Shown here in pieces: positions 2,602 through 36,246 of a DNA stretch of 40,067 nt; positions within the stretch are counted from its first letter, which is position 1; every line of letters starts with the position of its first letter. Source of the stretch: a virus (lineage: Duplodnaviria > Heunggongvirae > Uroviricota > Caudoviricetes); the IMG/VR virus record IMGVR_UViG_2585427781_000002, one strand, 5' to 3'. The position numbers and the translations under genes were made by a program. The notes under the pieces were generated by a model. The model did no database searches and had not been told where the DNA came from. It worked only from the letters and a program-made list of their open reading frames with translations.

Positions 2602-6003
<3,402 letters not shown>

Positions 6004-6708: not shown

Positions 6709-7349
6709 TTGTCGGTATACCTCTCTCGTTTGCTCAGTTGTTCAGGAATATGGTGCAGCAGCTCGCCGTCGCCGCAGTAAATAGCGGCATGATTCGGCAC
6801 CGATGAACCAAAACAGCACAGCAGCACATCGCCCGGCTGCGCCGCTGACAACGGCACCTGATACAGCCCTGTAGCCTCCAGATTATCCAGATAGAGATTC
6901 TGACCGTTACGCCACCAGTCATCCCCGCGATGAAAATCCGGCATCTCAATCCCCGCCAGATGGTAAGCATCCCGGAACAGCGTGTAACAGTCCGTCACCC
7001 CGTGCTCAAAGCGCCGCCCGGTGAGATGCGGCACACAGCGGAATTTATGAATCTCACCCCGGCAGACCAGCCACCACGGCAAATCACTCTGCACCTGCAG
7101 CCGCCGGTCAGTCTCACTCAGCCAGGGCAGACCACCGGGGTGGCTGTGGACCAGCGCCACAATCTCACCCTGCATTTCTGCCCGCAGCCAGTCCTCCGGC
7201 GACATCCGGAAATACTCCTCCGGCTCACCGGAGATATTCACGCAGGGAAAATATCTTTCTCCCTCCGGCGTTCTCACCACGAAGCCGCACGACTCCGCTG
7301 GCGCACATCGCCGGGCGTGCGCCAGAATCGCTGATTCTGTCTCTGTCAT
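6606..7349 (-). CDS. K: tail assembly protein K (MPN/JAB plus NlpC/P60-like domains)
   Basis: 247-aa ORF with HSHPGG metal-binding motif and a downstream Cys/His peptidase-like region; position between L and I. The exact start is uncertain. Confidence 0.8.
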   Translation of the reverse strand: MTETESAILAHARRCAPAESCGFVVRTPEGERYFPCVNISGEPEEYFRMSPEDWLRAEMQGEIVALVHSHPGGLPWLSETDRRLQVQSDLPWWLVCRGEIHKFRCVPHLTGRRFEHGVTDCYTLFRDAYHLAGIEMPDFHRGDDWWRNGQNLYLDNLEATGLYQVPLSAAQPGDVLLCCFGSSVPNHAAIYCGDGELLHHIPEQLSKRERYTDKWQRRTHSLWRHRAWHASAFTGICNDLAAASTFV

Positions 7350-22609: not shown

Positions 22610-22880
22610 AATGTTACCGTAATATGTGAGTATCCATCGACTAGACACTAAGCAAAAAAGCTCCCGAAGGAGCCTTCATTTTCACTTTCTTAAATCTAAC
22701 GACAGACGGCTAACATTTAAGTATTGTGAAATATTATCAAATGTAATCATCATTGATTTACAAAAGATACATTTTGCCCCGAAAGGATTCCTGTCAGAAA
22801 CATCAAAAGATGATGTTCTATACTGAGAACCATGGCAACACGGGCATCTAAAGTGAATATGGTTTGTAATATTTTCTACC

Positions 22881-23093
22881 TCAAAGTGCCACAACATGAA
22901 CAGCCGCGGGGCCTTTAGGTCCGTTCTCAATACCAAATTCGACTTCCTGATTCTCAGTTAACGTTTTGAAATCGTTGCTCTGAATAGCTGAGAAATGGAC
23001 AAACACATCTTTGCTACCATCTTTCGGCGTGATGAAACCAAAACCTTTTTCAGGGTTAAACCATTTCACTAAACCAGTCATTTTGTTAGACAT
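22881..23093 (-). CDS. cspI: cold shock protein, CspA family (CspI-like)
   Basis: [70 protein letters not shown]; canonical RNP motifs, 70 aa; long AT-rich upstream region consistent with a csp 5' UTR. Confidence 0.9.
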
Positions 23094-23456
23094 CATTATT
23101 ACCTTTTGAAGAAGTTAGCCCTTGGGCAGAATGGTCCGAAAAAAAATATCAGAGAGAAAAACCAACAAGGAAATCTCAAGAGGTACAAATAATAAAATTA
23201 TAACAATGACTGCTTCAGATAATTTTGTAACAAACCAGAACACCATTAACGCATGATTAACCAACCATAGCAAGGATTACTTTTGTAAAGAAAAACACAC
23301 GAATGAAACAATAGCTTTATTTATTAATAAAACGTGTCATTCTGTCTAATGACCTTTTATCTTACCCTTAAGATTTCAAGGATTTTGACTCATGGAAGAG
23401 TCCTTTTTATTTAAATTTCACATTCAGCGCTAAAAATAATCCGATTTAATATTAAT

Positions 23457-24484
<1,028 letters not shown>

Positions 24485-25561: not shown

Positions 25562-26284
25562 CTAAGAAAATCTTGATAAATATTGGTGCGGAGGCACACC
25601 AAAATATCTTCTAAAAACACTTACAAAATATGATGCATTGTCATACCCGCATATTCCCGCCACCTTGCCGACAGTATGGTTACTGTAGATCAATAATCTT
25701 TGCGCCATCATCATTCGTTCTTCAAGAATTAATTTACTAAACGATAATCCTTCGTCTTTTAATTTTCTTTTTAACAAACTCTCGCTCATATATAATCTTG
25801 AAGATATATCACAAAGTCTCCATGACGCTGAGATATCCGAGTGAATAATAGCCTTAACTTTACAACCTAAGCTATTAAGACTTCCGAACAAAAAACTTTG
25901 CACTATTTTCTCTGAAGATAAGACAGCAAGACATGCAAGTGATATTTGATTTCTAACTACATCCACGGTTTTGCTATCACAATTCAAGCATGCAACCAAG
26001 TTCTTTAACAATGAAAAATCTTCACATTCTACTATCAAGTATGACGGATAAAACCTTCTTACAGAAAAAGGTGAGAGTGTGTAGTTTTTAAAGAAATCAT
26101 TAACTGTTTTCTCCTCAACATCTACGATCATTAGATGATCTGTATTTGACGAAAAAAGATCTTTTAAATTGTATTCAATGAGGACAGCATTTCCTTTTTT
26201 AAACAAAATATCTTCTTTACCAATTCGGACACCAAACGAGTTCAACACCAAAATGATAGAACATATGTATGGCATATTATCCAC
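25562..26284 (-). CDS. AraC/XylS-family transcriptional regulator
   Basis: 240-aa ORF with a C-terminal AraC-type helix-turn-helix (...GICGYDNASYFVSVFRRYFGVPPHQY); low-GC gene with a 400-bp AT-rich upstream region. Confidence 0.85.
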   Translation of the reverse strand: MDNMPYICSIILVLNSFGVRIGKEDILFKKGNAVLIEYNLKDLFSSNTDHLMIVDVEEKTVNDFFKNYTLSPFSVRRFYPSYLIVECEDFSLLKNLVACLNCDSKTVDVVRNQISLACLAVLSSEKIVQSFLFGSLNSLGCKVKAIIHSDISASWRLCDISSRLYMSESLLKRKLKDEGLSFSKLILEERMMMAQRLLIYSNHTVGKVAGICGYDNASYFVSVFRRYFGVPPHQYLSRFS

Positions 26285-26681
26285 CTGATATCATTGGGGT
26301 TACACCAGGTAAGTATAGGTGGAAAATCAATATTCGCCAGTTCAACAATAAGGAAAATCTCATTGCATCACAACTATAAAACCATGTGTTTAACTCACAA
26401 AAAACAAATCATTAAACTAATCTGTTATATTATAATAGCTGCGTGCAATAATAATATTATATACTCTTAATATTCACTTGAAATATCTTCATATAAAAAC
26501 AGATTGAATAAAATCGTTTGGGGCTGGTATGTTTACCAACATTAAATTGCATCTCAATGTTTTCTTTAGCGTGAACAGGATTTTTATAAAAACTGACACT
26601 ATGAGCATCATAGCGTAGTTTTTACGATTGTAAATATCCTGCATACAGGAACTCATCACTTTCAGATGATATCGCATACAG

Positions 26682-27641
26682 TTAATTCACCATCAGTCTT
26701 AGAGCCAGTTCTTCCGGATAGGGATCGAAGTAATTCTGTGTAAGCAAGTAATCATTAGGATACTCACCCAGATAATGCTTCAGCAGAGTCAACGGCGCAA
26801 GAAGAGGCAATGTGCCAAAGCGATAGTTAAGTATAACCTCGCTCAACTCTTTACGCTGGCGTGTACTTAAGTAATTACTAAAATACCCCTGTATATGCAT
26901 CAGCACATTCGTGTGATTTTTACGTGATGCTGGTTTTCTGAGAATCGCCATCAGATTATCACGATACACCTCAAAGTATGATTCAAGGTCCGCCCACTCG
27001 TGTATTGCAGCCACAAATGGTCCCATATCTTTATAGCCTGCCTGGCTATGCGCCAACAACTGAAGCTTATAACGACTATGAAAAGCTAATAACTCTCTTC
27101 TTGATAATTTCTCCTTGTAAAGGTGATTGAGCTCATGCAAAGCAAAAACTCTTTCAATAAAATTCTCACGAAGCACTGGATCATGTAATCGCCCATCCTC
27201 TTCAACCGGTAGCCAGGAAAACTTTTCCATCAAAGTGCTCGTAAATAGTCCCACTCCATCTTTACGACCTCGATTACCATTTTCATCATAGACACGCACG
27301 CGCTCCATGCCACAGCTGGGAGATTTAGCACAAACCACAAACCCCGATACATCCTTTAATTTGTCCATATAAGAACGACTAAACTCTGTCATTCTCTCTG
27401 TCACATCCTCATTCTGGTCGTGGCTGAAACACATCCGTATATTTCCTTGCTTCGAGCGCACAAGTCGTAGAGCAGGACGCGGAACTGGCAGCCCTATAGC
27501 CATTTCCGGACATACTGGTCTGAATGTTACCCATTCCACTAATTTGTCCATTAAAAAGTCATCTCTTTTGTGACCACCATCAAAACGAACAGCAGAACCG
27601 CCCAAACAACCGCTGATCCCAATCACAGGTTTTTTTATCAT
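26682..27641 (-). CDS. DUF523 (TudS-like thiouracil desulfidase family) fused to DUF1722
   Basis: 319-aa ORF; N-terminal GISGCLGG...FDGG with conserved cysteines (..RPVCPE.., ..CAKSPSCGMERV..) typical of DUF523, and a helical C-terminal half consistent with DUF1722. Confidence 0.65.
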   Translation of the reverse strand: MIKKPVIGISGCLGGSAVRFDGGHKRDDFLMDKLVEWVTFRPVCPEMAIGLPVPRPALRLVRSKQGNIRMCFSHDQNEDVTERMTEFSRSYMDKLKDVSGFVVCAKSPSCGMERVRVYDENGNRGRKDGVGLFTSTLMEKFSWLPVEEDGRLHDPVLRENFIERVFALHELNHLYKEKLSRRELLAFHSRYKLQLLAHSQAGYKDMGPFVAAIHEWADLESYFEVYRDNLMAILRKPASRKNHTNVLMHIQGYFSNYLSTRQRKELSEVILNYRFGTLPLLAPLTLLKHYLGEYPNDYLLTQNYFDPYPEELALRLMVN

Positions 27642-28513: not shown

Positions 28514-28906
28514 TTATTTCGAACAATCAGCATCCATCTCCAATCGGAGATCCAACACCATCAGCATGCCCTCCACTACGCCCTCAGCTTTCTGGAGCAT
28601 CCTGCCAACCCAACAATCAGATCGCCCATGCTTACGTGCAAGCGCCATAAAAGTCATGCCGCCGACATAATAGTCCACCAATAAATCATGTAAATCGCTG
28701 TTGTTTTTTTTCAGGCGAGCCATACATTCACAAATGATCATCGCGTCATCGTCACAGCATTGCGGACGAGATCTTACTTTTGAAGGAATTAATCCCTTAA
28801 AACCGGCGGCAATGGACGACCAGGTCACATCTTCATGATTATTAGCCGCCCATGCCCCCCAACGCTCAAGAACCATCTGAATATCACGCATCAACTTACT
28901 CCACAA
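28514..28906 (-). CDS. late-gene antiterminator Q (phage 21 / QuuD-like)
   Basis: ...[73 protein letters not shown]... closely resembles Q21-type antiterminators as remembered; the start may be the internal Met (MRDIQ). Confidence 0.85.
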
Positions 28907-28908
28907 AA

Positions 28909-29958
28909 TTAGGCCAGCACACCAATTGCCAGCGCGCGATCGATAAATCGAAAAATCAGCTCCAGTTGGGAGCCATACTTCTCTTCAAATGCCACGGTAT
29001 CCGTATGCAACTCGTCGTGATGCTTTCTGCACAAAGGCAACACAAAGAGATCATGTGCTTTGGTTCCCATTCCGCCCTGCCCGTGACCAATTAGATGATG
29101 CGGATCGTCGGCTGGCATACCGCAGCAAGCACACGGCTGTGTCTTAACCCAGCGTGTGTATTTCTCCTTAACCCAACGGTGACGTTTAGGCAGCTTCATG
29201 AAAGATTCCGGAGACTCTGGATCAACGGTGATGCTTACCACCGTCTTTTCCTGTGATGGGTTTTGTTGCTGGTGGGCGTGAGGCAACGGTGCAAGATTTT
29301 TTGTGCGCTGTTTCAATATGCTGGTGGCGGTCTGCTCTCCCGGTACGATGTCGCTTTCGCGGTACACCGAGCAGTTTTTTTCCGCTGGTAATCCCAGCGA
29401 GCGACGTAATACCACTTCCGGTAGCGCGTCCGCCACCTGATTGCGGACCGCCCACCAGGATAATTCAGCCAGAGATAATTCACGCTCCTGCGTACCGCTT
29501 ATTGCGTGACCGATGACGTCAATCATCCATGCTGACAGGTTTTGATGAGCAAGTTGCTCGAGTGATTCGGATGTCTGGTCACGCAGCTGGTTGTCGCAGT
29601 GCCAGCACAACACCATTGCGCCGGTACCATAACGGTGAATAACGGTTTCGCTGTGATGATAATCGCCGTGTGGCCACTGGCAGGATTTAATATGGCGCAA
29701 CAGCCAGTCAGACAATGCACCAGCACCACCAGCAGCACGAATTACCCGTGCGTTACTGAAAAACGGCAGCAATGTTTTGTCTTCCACCAGCGGCTGGCGA
29801 ACGGCAGGAACGACCCCGGACGGCAGATTACGCATGCTTTTCGGTTCCGGCTCCACCAGTACCCGGGTATTGTGGAATACCGGCATGGATTCACGGCCCG
29901 GCTTAACGACCACCAGCCCGAGTTCCGGTACCAGAACAGGTCGAAGTAATACCCGCAC
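28909..29958 (-). CDS. DUF968-family phage protein (YdfU-like)
   Basis: 349-aa ORF with C-terminal Cys/His-rich motif ([18 protein letters not shown]...CRKHHDELH); translationally coupled to neighbours on both sides. Confidence 0.6.
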
Positions 29959-29959
29959 G

Positions 29960-30238
29960 TTACCTCCAGATGCGTTGCTGGAATGTACGGGACGGACGCG
30001 GTGGGCGTTCGGAGTAAGGCAATCTGACTGAGATTATCCAGTGACGGTAGTCGAGACTAAGAGCTTTCTTAACCTCGTATCCGCGCCTGCGGTAACACTG
30101 AATTATCCATTCAGCCTGCTCTTCAGTGCATGGAGGGTGCTGGAACCATTCAGACTTGAATGCGTGAGAATACCGCTCGTGCGTGCAGGCAAGAACGGGC
30201 GAATTATCAGAATTGTAATATTTTACGTTGCGTGCCAT
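29960..30238 (-). CDS. hypothetical phage protein
   Basis: 92-aa ORF ending 1 nt before the DUF968 start; Cys/His-containing. Confidence 0.45.
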   Translation of the reverse strand: MARNVKYYNSDNSPVLACTHERYSHAFKSEWFQHPPCTEEQAEWIIQCYRRRGYEVKKALSLDYRHWIISVRLPYSERPPRPSRTFQQRIWR

Positions 30239-30304
30239 CGGTTTTCTCCGGTGGCACGGTGTTACTCAGCGGGAGTTCAGCCCCGCGCAAGATTGTAGAT
30301 GAGT

Positions 30305-30556
30305 TTATTCTTCTGCAAAAGCTGAAAAGCCTGCTTTTATTCCGATCTCTTTCAGTGCCTGTAATGAAGTGACAAACTCACCTTCGCGCAAGATAAATCC
30401 GTCTGTCACTCGACCATCCACAAAATTAATTAACGCAGCCCCATTCTTTCGCAAACACATAATGCGGTAATGACTAACAAGATTTCCATTTTCAACGCAC
30501 ACAGCATAGAGGCCATCTTCACAAAAAATTTTACGCAGTTCTTCGATGTTCATCAT
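30305..30556 (-). CDS. hypothetical small phage protein upstream of hok
   Basis: 83-aa ORF (MMNIEELRKIF...); same size and position as Qin rem but identity not confirmed. Confidence 0.45.
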   Translation of the reverse strand: MMNIEELRKIFCEDGLYAVCVENGNLVSHYRIMCLRKNGAALINFVDGRVTDGFILREGEFVTSLQALKEIGIKAGFSAFAEE

Positions 30557-30671
30557 CAGAATCCTTCCGGATAATTAGCTCTCCCCTTTAAGGGACCATC
30601 CCTCTTATCCCTGCGCGCTACTTAAGTATTTTTGATTCTATTCCGGCACCGTCCAGAACTTCAAACGCGTT

Positions 30672-30702
30672 GAAAATAAAAACAAAACCCCGCCGAAGCG
30701 GG
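30672..30702 (-). terminator. intrinsic terminator of the hok transcript
   Basis: Stem CCCGC (30689-30693) / GCGGG (30698-30702) with loop CGAA, followed on the minus strand by a U-rich run (plus-strand A-rich 30672-30688). Confidence 0.5.
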
Positions 30703-30772
30703 TTAAGTGCGGGTGCGTTGAGGATGCCTGCCACATCAGAGGTGGCGAGGGATTTCTCCCTCGCCGGGTCTC

Positions 30773-30928
30773 TTACTCCTCAGGTTCGTAAGCTGTGAAG
30801 ACAGCGACCTCCGTCTGGCCGGTTCGGATTCGTACCTCGCAGAGGTCTTTCCTCGTTACCAGTGCCGTCACTATGACGGTTAAACAGATGACGATCAGGG
30901 CGATTAACATCGCCTTTTGCTGCTTCAT
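30773..30928 (-). CDS. hokD: Hok/Gef-family type I toxin
   Basis: From ATG 30928 with AAGGAG RBS: MKQQKAMLIALIVICLTVIVTALVTRKDLCEVRIRTGQTEVAVFTAYEPEE, 51 aa, single transmembrane helix plus the conserved Cys; an in-frame upstream extension (mok-like) is present in the track ORF. Confidence 0.9.
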   Translation of the reverse strand: MKQQKAMLIALIVICLTVIVTALVTRKDLCEVRIRTGQTEVAVFTAYEPEE

Positions 30929-31185
30929 AGCCTGCTTCTCCTTGCCTTTCGGCACGTAAGAGGCTAACCTACATGTGTCTAGCATGAAATTGGCCTCAGA
31001 TTAATGTTAAGCGTCTTGCAGGACGCGTAATGTTAACTGGGGCTTTTCTCTACCTGCCGTTGGTGTTCGTGCCCGAGGCAGATAGCCTCAAGCACCCGCA
31101 GTCATTCTACTTAACTAAGATTTCCCCGCAAACCGTTTTGTCCAGCACAGTAAATATCCAACTAAACCAATGGAGTTCGCTGTAT

Positions 31186-31365
31186 TTACCGCCAGTATTC
31201 AATGCACATGACCGCCATGAACACCCCTAAAAAAAGGGCATTTATATATCCAAATATTAATATCAAAACATCAACTTTTTCCATATACCTTGCTGTGAAG
31301 ATGATGGGCATACATGATGCGAACAACCAGAACGCAACAAACAAAAACTGCAATGCGTTTTTCAT
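31186..31365 (-). CDS. hypothetical small membrane protein (two predicted transmembrane helices)
   Basis: 59-aa ORF from ATG 31365 preceded by a G-rich RBS-like sequence; strongly hydrophobic (ALQFLFVAFWLFA... / LILIFGYINALFLGVFMAV); AT-rich codon usage. Confidence 0.4.
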   Translation of the reverse strand: MKNALQFLFVAFWLFASCMPIIFTARYMEKVDVLILIFGYINALFLGVFMAVMCIEYWR

Positions 31366-31847
31366 TATTCCCCCTACAATCAATGTGCAATAACATTTAA
31401 ACACACCTCAATTTAGCCGGACATATAAATATCTAAACCAGAAAAAATCACTTACATAGCGTTACAAACTCTTTAGTCTAAATATTCATCGTAAAACATT
31501 CCCCATACTTATCAGCCCGTTCTGCGCCAGGTAGCTCATTGCCTTATCTGGGAACCTGTAATCAGGTTTCCGGATGCTGGTGGATTTTCGCGTTTTAGTT
31601 GTTCATAAAAGTGCACAGCTTTAACCAGTTCTTCTGATGTAACCGGGACTGGCGGGGCAGTGAATAAGGCCTGAATTTCATAGTTCGGCCTATCGTTACA
31701 ATCCTCTTTTTTCGGTACATATTTCCAGTCACCAGACCACTACTTCCCCTGAAAGTCCGTAACGCCTTTTTTTCACGTAGCGATATCGCCATGCCTTTTT
31801 TTTTGCTTCCCCCGCCGTTTCATGCCCTTCCTGATAATTAACCTCGC

Positions 31848-32024
31848 TCATTCATCGCCCCACTCATCACAATATGCTTCGACCGGAGTTTTTCCTGCTT
31901 CATAATCATCACGCCATGCTTCAGCATCAGCAGCACTGCCACCACGTAACTCTGCATAGTCCATTAACAGTTCATGCCATTCTTCAAAACCGACGTTGTA
32001 TTTAGTTGAACCAAAATCAGCCAT
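31848..32024 (-). CDS. hypothetical small acidic protein (58 aa)
   Basis: ORF below the track threshold, found by hand translation: MADFGSTKYNVGFEEWHELLMDYAELRGGSAADAEAWRDDYEAGKTPVEAYCDEWGDE, with GAGGAAG RBS-like sequence upstream. Confidence 0.35.
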   Translation of the reverse strand: MADFGSTKYNVGFEEWHELLMDYAELRGGSAADAEAWRDDYEAGKTPVEAYCDEWGDE

Positions 32025-36187: not shown

Positions 36188-36246
36188 TTTTCTGGTGACG
36201 TTTGGCGGTATCAGTTTTACTCCGTGACTGCTCTGCCGCCGTTTTT
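36188..36246 (+). ncRNA. dicF: DicF small regulatory RNA
   Basis: TTTCTGGTGACGTTTGGCGGTATCAGTTTTACTCCGTGACTGCTCTGCCGCCGTTTTT matches the DicF sRNA as remembered, including the terminal hairpin plus T-run; located between the ydfB/C-position gene and dicB. Confidence 0.8.

Follow-up and report, generated by a model that had tools for sequence, protein, structure and literature searches.

IMG/VR virus record IMGVR_UViG_2585427781_000002 is a 40,067-nucleotide (nt) stretch of DNA from a virus of the Caudoviricetes, referred to here at its full length as the window. The window is an E. coli lambdoid prophage whose gene order, read on the minus strand, resembles that of Qin in E. coli K-12. This report concerns two neighbours in the nin (early-right) region of the prophage: a hokD-type hok/mok/sok toxin-antitoxin module and, directly upstream of it, an AT-rich cassette with a gene for a hydrophobic protein of 59 amino acids. 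The first-pass annotation, made from the letters alone, had described a hok-type locus with a ribosome-binding site, an in-frame mok, a 3′ hairpin and a terminator, lying beside an unrelated small two-helix membrane protein. Both parts of this description held: all elements of the hok locus were confirmed by sequence, Pfam, folding and a terminator scan, and the two-helix nature of the neighbour was confirmed by hydropathy and an AlphaFold2 model, with a Shine-Dalgarno (SD) sequence and a coding signal present. The coordinates of the features are collected in Table 1.

Table 1. Features of the hok module, the adjoining cassette and the surrounding prophage (window positions; MFE, minimum free energy structure; PGAP, Prokaryotic Genome Annotation Pipeline)
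Feature	Position	Strand	Basis or remark
Full-length hok mRNA, about 426 nt	30672-31097	-	+1 near 31097 (Rfam) to terminator T-run
Candidate hok promoter	31104-31131	-	TTGCGG 31126-31131, 16-nt spacer, TAGAAT 31104-31109; sequence reading
tac element, hok mRNA 5′ end, GGGUGCUUGAGG	31086-31097	-	pairs with 30711-30723 in MFE
mok-like frame, 70 codons, in frame with hok	30773-30985	-	list of open reading frames
hok SD, AAGGAG	30938-30943	-	
hok coding sequence, 51-residue HokD and stop	30773-30928	-	Pfam HOK_GEF, K-12 identity, PGAP
3′ untranslated region hairpin after hok stop	30744-30765	-	9 bp, loop of 4; in MFE and centroid
fbi element, 3′ partner of tac	30711-30723	-	MFE pairs mRNA nt 1-12 with 375-387
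Intrinsic hok mRNA terminator	30675-30702	-	terminator scan: stem CCCGCttcgGCGGG 30689-30702, then T-run GTTTTGTTTT
Sok promoter	30944-30972	+	-35 TTGCCT 30944-30949, 17-nt spacer, -10 TAACCT 30967-30972; aligns upstream of sokC/sokB
Predicted Sok RNA, about 77 nt	30977-31053	+	alignment to K-12 sokC (L094 553-611)
AT-rich cassette with 59-residue gene, 346 nt	31140-31485	-	between upstream gene stop (~31483-31485) and hok boundary 31139
Gene for 59-residue two-helix membrane protein, with stop	31186-31365	-	SD AGGGGGA ends 3 nt before ATG
Tail, head and terminase genes			first in gene order, before lysis cassette
DUF2514 gene of lysis cassette	23457-23954		same Pfam family as K-12 rzpQ
Lysozyme (endolysin) of lysis cassette	23951-24484		
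Antiterminator Q	28514-28906		
YdfU/DUF968	28909-29958		followed by 92-residue gene
Rem	30305-30556		adjoins hok locus
DicF RNA	36190-36241		

The hok/mok/sok module

The product of the toxin gene, MKQQKAMLIALIVICLTVIVTALVTRKDLCEVRIRTGQTEVAVFTAYEPEE, is identical to HokD of E. coli K-12 at 51 of 51 positions. It matches HOK_GEF (Pfam PF01848) at 81.6 bits (cutoff 22; 3e-23) and PHROG 251 at 2.8e-33, and its 51 residues agree with the Hok family pattern of about 50 amino acids and one transmembrane helix; PGAP labels the toxin gene of an identical locus hokD. HokD has served elsewhere as a known toxic control (bioRxiv 10.1101/2025.08.07.668861). The overlapping mok frame begins at an ATG at 30985 and has its own SD (GAGG, 30994-30997) 8 nt upstream, and translational coupling of the two frames is predicted. 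The codon for Tyr47 of hok (UAC, 30788-30790, minus strand, with the A at 30789) stands in a context, CUUACGAA, that resembles the tRNA-Arg anticodon loop; in K-12, low-level (6%) A-to-I editing of hokD by TadA is reported to recode this Tyr to Cys (PMC12214031; bioRxiv 10.1101/2025.08.07.668861).

The leader of the hok mRNA was recognized by the Rfam model RF01794 over 30923-31097 on the minus strand, with 107.8 bits (gathering threshold 59) and an E value of 8e-25, and the match covers model positions 1-157 of 157, position 1 falling at 31097, as in a structured hok leader. RF01794 bears the name ‘sok antitoxin’. Its match stops at the hok AUG on the hok-sense strand, which shows that the model describes the hok-sense leader rather than the antisense RNA; a hit therefore locates the hok leader and does not indicate the strand or extent of Sok. 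Upstream of the leader, the TAGAAT of the candidate hok promoter lies 6 nt before +1 and within the conserved hok module, which extends upstream to 31139; promoter activity here is putative. The complete 426-nt RNA folds to -170.6 kcal/mol, compared with a mean of -131.8 for shuffled sequences (z = -6.4), and the long-range pairing of tac with fbi forms in the MFE. So does the 3′ hairpin, with arms GGCGAGGGA and TCCCTCGCC at 30744-30752 and 30757-30765; its existence had been noted correctly, and its earlier coordinates (30742-30764) were off by 1-2 nt.

The antisense RNA was delimited from an alignment to the K-12 loci hokC/sokC and hokB/sokB, both of which have annotated small RNAs. The results showed that the earlier placement of a sok-like RNA on the plus strand around 30900-31000 was right as to strand and took in the promoter and the first 24 nt, while the RNA itself lies at about 30977-31053. 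About 15 nt at its 5′ end form an unpaired tail that covers the mok start codon, and the remainder is a long terminator hairpin (~30992-31044) followed by CUUUUCUCU; the predicted fold has -30.3 kcal/mol (z = -5.4). The hairpin tip carries an 18-nt insertion relative to SokC, which appears as an insertion in the Rfam alignment too. A promoter, a terminator and coverage of the mok start are thus all present for a cis-antisense Sok, a transcript predicted here from sequence.

Variation was assessed in 108 full-length copies of the hok mRNA from phage records and IMG/VR contigs, which fell into 77 haplotypes sharing 91-100% identity with the window. The window MFE has 140 base pairs: 88 were invariant across these haplotypes, 29 varied on one side only and 4 on both sides. 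The tac element was invariant, and the tac-fbi helix showed only changes from G-C to G-U, with no broken and no compensatory pairs; because compensatory change is absent, support for this helix comes from the fold and from conservation, not from covariation. Three compensatory pairs sit in the hairpin common to the Sok terminator and the Sok-target region. The -35 TTG and the -10 TA...T of the Sok promoter were retained in nearly all haplotypes, and the mok ATG and SD in 77 of 77. Together, these comparisons support constraint on the structure of the hok RNA.

The 5′ tail of Sok (30977-30992, plus strand) and the facing mok codons 2-5 (30971-30982, minus strand) were hypervariable across the same haplotypes, in which HokD is almost always identical; the Mok N-termini seen were MLDTC, MLYTR, MNGKS, MSHKC, MLVTY and MLHKR. 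Beside this hypervariable tail, the Sok hairpin and the mok ATG with its SD are nearly fixed. Such a pattern would prevent cross-reaction between co-resident copies, of which a genome can have matching places at up to nine sites. Two mok architectures occur in close relatives: the in-frame form of 70 codons found in the window, and a leader ORF (open reading frame) of 19 codons whose stop overlaps the hok start (ATGA). The latter was present in 18 of the 77 haplotypes (e.g., L138 and L166) and originated by a 2-nt deletion and a 1-nt insertion.

The upstream cassette and its 59-codon gene

Between 31180 and 31540 the GC content is only 32-39%, compared with 45-60% in the DNA to each side. In phages of the L144/L171 type, similarity to the window covers 30600-31139 and resumes over 31486-31570, the 3′ end of the gene upstream, with 78 unrelated nt between the two segments; because the flanks are conserved around unrelated DNA, 31140-31485 is an exchangeable cassette. 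Its downstream boundary at 31139 lies 42 nt before the hok +1. The gene upstream of the cassette (31486-31851, minus strand) is broken into short ORFs in the window, and at the 99.9%-identical CP53 locus PGAP records it as a pseudogene that is frameshifted and has an internal stop. Among 80 IMG/VR loci that encode an identical HokD, the 59-codon gene is present in 15, 3 are of the relE type and 62 diverge just upstream of the hok promoter, the module being common in these 62 only up to window positions 31097-31143; other phage records have Paa/AdfO or unrelated genes upstream of hok. Given that 65 of the 80 loci lack the 59-codon gene, hok/sok does not depend on it.

Two other small hydrophobic ORFs were found in the slot just upstream of the hokD promoter (L150 350-454; L176 721-825; L144 ~408-489). 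One encodes a peptide of 34 residues, MSDDISLAMEGALAVIAVVGVYCLVVFLMDRLGN, preceded by a strong SD and differing between variants mainly at synonymous sites; it occurs in 10 of the 80 identical-HokD loci and is annotated by PGAP in O157:H7 as WP_001278450.1. The other, a peptide of 27 residues, MTWPEALTTVGIAMAVALVVYSICRWG, is unannotated and occurs in 15 of the 80. The 59-, 34- and 27-residue peptides are mutually unrelated, and together they account for about half of these loci.

The 59-residue protein, MKNALQFLFVAFWLFASCMPIIFTARYMEKVDVLILIFGYINALFLGVFMAVMCIEYWR, has two hydrophobic stretches by hydropathy, and AlphaFold2 modelled it as a hairpin of helices 2-26 and 28-58 with a mean predicted local distance difference test score of 77. 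Searches against Pfam, PHROGs, NCBIfam, PADLOC and PDB sequences returned no match, a literature search by the peptide sequences returned none either, and a Foldseek comparison of the hairpin with viral structures gave nothing below E = 1.7, which is no surprise for a hairpin on its own. The relatives that a word-indexed search of 5.8 billion proteins turned up were all from E. coli and Shigella, at 74% identity or more, and a HMMER pass over 1.84 billion representative proteins added one further type, so that the family comprises two subtypes. This second member, MRKILMYLCISIWIVISCVPIILTSEYLTEASIMALMFGHANALCIGVFISIIYIECWR, is also exactly 59 residues long, is 41% identical and is preceded by the SD-like AGGGA; tblastn met it as well in two large E. 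coli entries classed as plasmids. It lies at L005 4001-4180 in a decayed prophage remnant between ttcA/an integrase remnant and uspF, a site that we take to be the Rac attachment region of K-12. Of 5426 complete E. coli genomes, 1045 (19%) carry it, with no annotated feature at the locus in 15 sampled rows, and 1570 (~29%) carry the window-type gene at 95% nucleotide identity or more. A scan of genome contigs with a two-sequence profile yielded at least three loci, including one decayed copy (L008).

Comparison of the two copies showed identity at 34, 42 and 28 of 59 sites for codon positions 1, 2 and 3, respectively, and in-frame amino acid identity of 25/60 as opposed to 14-18 in the five other frames. 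The proportions of synonymous and non-synonymous differences (pS 0.716, pN 0.338) correspond to a ratio of non-synonymous to synonymous rates (dN/dS) of about 0.19 in this frame, compared with pN/pS of 0.64-1.23 in the other five registers, and the flanks of the two copies do not align save for about 20 nt past the stop. Because the ORF has an SD, a second copy of the same length, this codon-position pattern, a low dN/dS and a modelled hairpin, it is very probably a genuine gene for a small inner-membrane protein, belonging to an orphan family with two subtypes, and it appears to be under purifying selection. A plus-strand ORF across the same DNA (31202-31393) is entered as ‘hornerin’ or ‘hypothetical protein’ in some phage GenBank records; it is regarded as spurious, since its frame is interrupted by stops in the second copy and lacks a coding signal. 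We also considered a class II holin, with two transmembrane segments, and rejected it: such holins are encoded beside the endolysin in the lysis cassette and have a charged C-terminal tail, whereas the ORF lies upstream of Q and away from the lysis cassette, and its C-terminal tail is only EYWR. As a small hydrophobic peptide the protein resembles type I toxins. The first-pass suggestion of a second membrane toxin or of an immunity or exclusion factor gained no support. A cognate antisense or divergent small RNA was sought for it with Rfam (no match), a terminator scan (none) and a promoter search of the opposite strand (8/12 matches); a lack of consensus sites is weak evidence.

No terminator was found by the scan between the 59-codon ORF and the hok start, and upstream of the ORF the one sequence resembling a promoter is a weak match (TTTAGA-16-TAAATT, 31410-31437, 8/12 in a relaxed scan). 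Given these two results, the gene may be read from the phage early-right transcript.

The Qin arrangement and the prophage context

K-12 Qin is 96% identical to the window in DNA over 29900-30942 and then diverges into relE, so that homology ends 14 nt upstream of the hok ATG. K-12 hokD consequently retains its SD and coding sequence without mok, sok, tac or the hok promoter, a loss that fits the published description of hokD as inactivated by rearrangement (PMC12214031). The window does not have relBE directly upstream of hokD in the relBEF manner and retains the leader instead. An intermediate arrangement was found in PhiR42_1 of ECOR13, where the order is the 59-codon gene, the hok leader and sok (to 30927), a two-ORF insertion sequence (IS), flxA, ydfV, relB, relE, hokD, rem, ydfU and Q. 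Among 80 IMG/VR loci with the 59-codon gene, the same IS follows the leader directly in 37 and the hok coding sequence is in place in 38; flxA was reached in 33 of the 37 IS-bearing loci within the 2.5-kb flank, with relBE beyond the flank in nearly all of them.

Both junctions of the IS-flxA-ydfV-relBE block carry the same 15 nt, ATAGCCTGCTTCTCC (window 30927-30942), as seen in PhiR42_1 (L090 1068-4436) and in K-12 (L004 ~7275-7290). This repeat is longer than the target duplications known for common IS elements. Judged by these junctions (30927/30942), the block is an insertion into the hok leader in Qin-type elements. The first-pass annotation had proposed that the 59-codon gene stands where Qin carries relBE, and this had to be abandoned: the relBE block is inserted inside the leader, outside which the 59-codon gene is located, and PhiR42_1 has both. 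The gene as a positional substitute for relBE was accordingly rejected.

The 901-nt region around the two neighbours is found in many E. coli chromosomes at 99.9% identity; of 5426 complete E. coli genomes, 1068 hold 80% or more of its length, and copy numbers per genome reach 9, the median being 2. Elsewhere in the prophage, we take the DUF2514 gene of the lysis cassette to be a spanin. Cargo between Q and the lysis genes, at 25562-27641 and 22835-23251 (both minus strand), includes an AraC-family regulator, a 2-thiouracil desulfurase/DUF1722 protein and a csp gene with a cspA-type thermoregulator leader.

Interpretation and comparison with known systems

We consider it probable that the locus consists of two independent cassettes lying side by side, a complete hokD-type hok/mok/sok module (30672-31139, minus strand) and an accessory membrane gene (31140-31485). 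The hok/mok/sok locus is real and structurally complete, an intact form of hokD and of a well-known kind. Its working can be proposed by analogy with hok/sok of plasmid R1, the steps of which are summarised in PMC9841398. A stable full-length hok mRNA would be made from its own promoter and kept closed to translation by the tac-fbi pairing; slow 3′ trimming would then open the mRNA, and refolding would expose the mok SD, so that ribosomes starting at mok could drive production of Hok, a membrane-depolarising peptide. The short and unstable Sok would pair across the mok start and the duplex would be degraded by RNase III, and Hok would be made once Sok is lost. We infer RNA processing, RNase III cleavage and killing at the window locus from this analogy. 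We read the second cassette as a 346-nt AT-rich insertion of the moron type with a single gene, for an inner-membrane helical hairpin restricted to Escherichia and Shigella. With low confidence, we regard its product as an accessory prophage membrane protein acting independently of hok/sok, most plausibly as a membrane-level modifier of the host or of superinfection, and we think that it is not an obligatory third component of the toxin-antitoxin system.

Several observations weigh against this interpretation, and they can be taken together with the alternatives that they favour. All of the roughly 85 loci with the 59-codon gene keep the adjoining hok leader and sok directly downstream, with no terminator between, and the second copy, the only other member of the family, is likewise followed on the same strand, about 55 nt downstream, by a hok fragment of 62 nt that is 81% identical and interrupted by an in-frame stop (L005 ~4235-4296). 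This constancy, together with the small hydrophobic ORFs that occupy the slot in about half of the 80 identical-HokD loci (15 + 15 + 10), speaks for a three-part system in which the 59-residue protein is coupled to hok/sok as an immunity factor or modulator of Hok, or as a second toxin. We judge such coupling unlikely, given that 65 of the 80 loci do without the gene, that the gene is kept in the 37 of 80 loci where the IS/flxA block parts the leader from the hok coding sequence (by ~3.3 kb in PhiR42_1), that the second copy is intact where hok is destroyed, and that the three slot peptides are mutually unrelated. The close linkage, over 89 nt, is explicable by common descent alone, and the constant association of the gene with hok is most simply the shared descent of a tightly linked pair. 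That the 59-codon ORF is no gene at all, only a chance frame in an AT-rich spacer called inconsistently by pipelines, seems to us marginally less probable again. It would agree with the absence of any annotated feature at the window-type locus in 60 evenly sampled RefSeq rows (of 1571 records), with the opposite-strand ORF called instead in phage records, with the several truncated or fused variants of the gene and with the 8/12 promoter match. All five polymorphic sites of the window type in 84 loci are, moreover, non-synonymous and none synonymous (A16V, V31I, I37M, Y40H and L44I), a test limited by conservative changes, too few sites and a biased choice of loci by protein similarity. Against a chance frame, the second copy has the same 59 codons and keeps both start and stop, each copy has an SD, the codon positions rank 2 above 1 above 3, dN/dS is low in this frame only, the opposite-strand frame meets stops in the second copy, and variable sites are sparser in the ORF (5 in 180) than in its flanks (16 in 201).

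The toxin module raises a separate doubt. In a consensus promoter scan the Sok, hok and 59-codon ORF promoters all fell below threshold, the Sok -10 (TAACCT) and the other two being weak consensus matches that the scan missed. Native chromosomal hokA, hokB and hokC are reported to have given no post-segregational killing (bioRxiv 10.1101/2025.08.07.668861), and the intact-looking hok locus of the window might be functionally quiet too. An intact-looking hok/sok that is not a prophage-stabilising killer, being either silent or an abortive-infection defence against phages, is a possibility we hold to be doubtful, if the least improbable of the alternatives; hok is enriched in prophages (bioRxiv 10.1101/2025.08.07.668861), and with the copy numbers given above cross-protection by other Sok RNAs is conceivable. 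On the other side, all the sequence-defined elements of hok/sok are present and conserved, and the hypervariable Sok 5′ tail and target among near-identical modules is what one expects if each copy is kept specific, hence active. Least probable of all, in our estimate, is the broader notion that the slot upstream of the prophage hokD promoter is dedicated to small transmembrane peptides that act with Hok, as immunity protein, modulator or co-toxin, in a three-part system; if the slot peptides did interact with Hok, a protein layer would be added to a textbook RNA-controlled toxin system.

The hok/sok part adds little by itself: it is the intact counterpart of a K-12 locus known as a truncated version, and it already carries a PGAP name. 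The locus is useful as a reference for the elements that K-12 Qin has lost (mok, sok, tac and the hok promoter), and with PhiR42_1 it shows the relBE side split from the rest of the leader by the inserted IS-flxA-ydfV-relBE block. The 59-codon gene is of modest interest: it is common in E. coli, has no described family, is unannotated in the sampled RefSeq rows and adjoins a hok leader or hok remnant in every sampled locus.

Among known systems, the cassette is comparable by analogy to the small ‘moron’ membrane proteins of phages (e.g., for superinfection exclusion), which are likewise short and hydrophobic and lie in AT-rich cassettes between conserved phage genes; unlike these, the 59-residue protein has no sequence similarity or significant fold similarity to described proteins. 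The module shares with hok/mok/sok (parB) of plasmid R1 a Hok toxin, a leader with tac, mok SD and Sok target, an fbi element, a 3′ hairpin and a terminator, as well as a cis-antisense Sok whose promoter lies inside mok and a match to the full Rfam leader model. It differs from R1 in lying in a prophage rather than on a plasmid and in the 18-nt insertion at the tip of the Sok terminator hairpin. Its mok is in frame with hok, with 57 nt between the two ATGs, whereas that of R1 is, we presume, out of frame. In this respect it resembles K-12 hokC/mokC/sokC (gef), where mok is also in frame (MokC, of 69 residues, contains HokC) and where leader and Sok can be aligned with those of the window. SokC has 59 nt as compared with about 77 for the predicted Sok, and an IS186 lies about 20 nt from the K-12 hokC coding sequence, in contrast to the window locus, which has no insertion; hokC has been described as inactivated by an insertion element (PMC12214031). 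K-12 Qin hokD (relF) differs in having relE/relB in place of mok, sok, tac and the promoter and in lacking the 59-codon gene, and it shares with the window the same 51-residue toxin, the same downstream rem, 92-residue gene, ydfU and Q, and also DicF.

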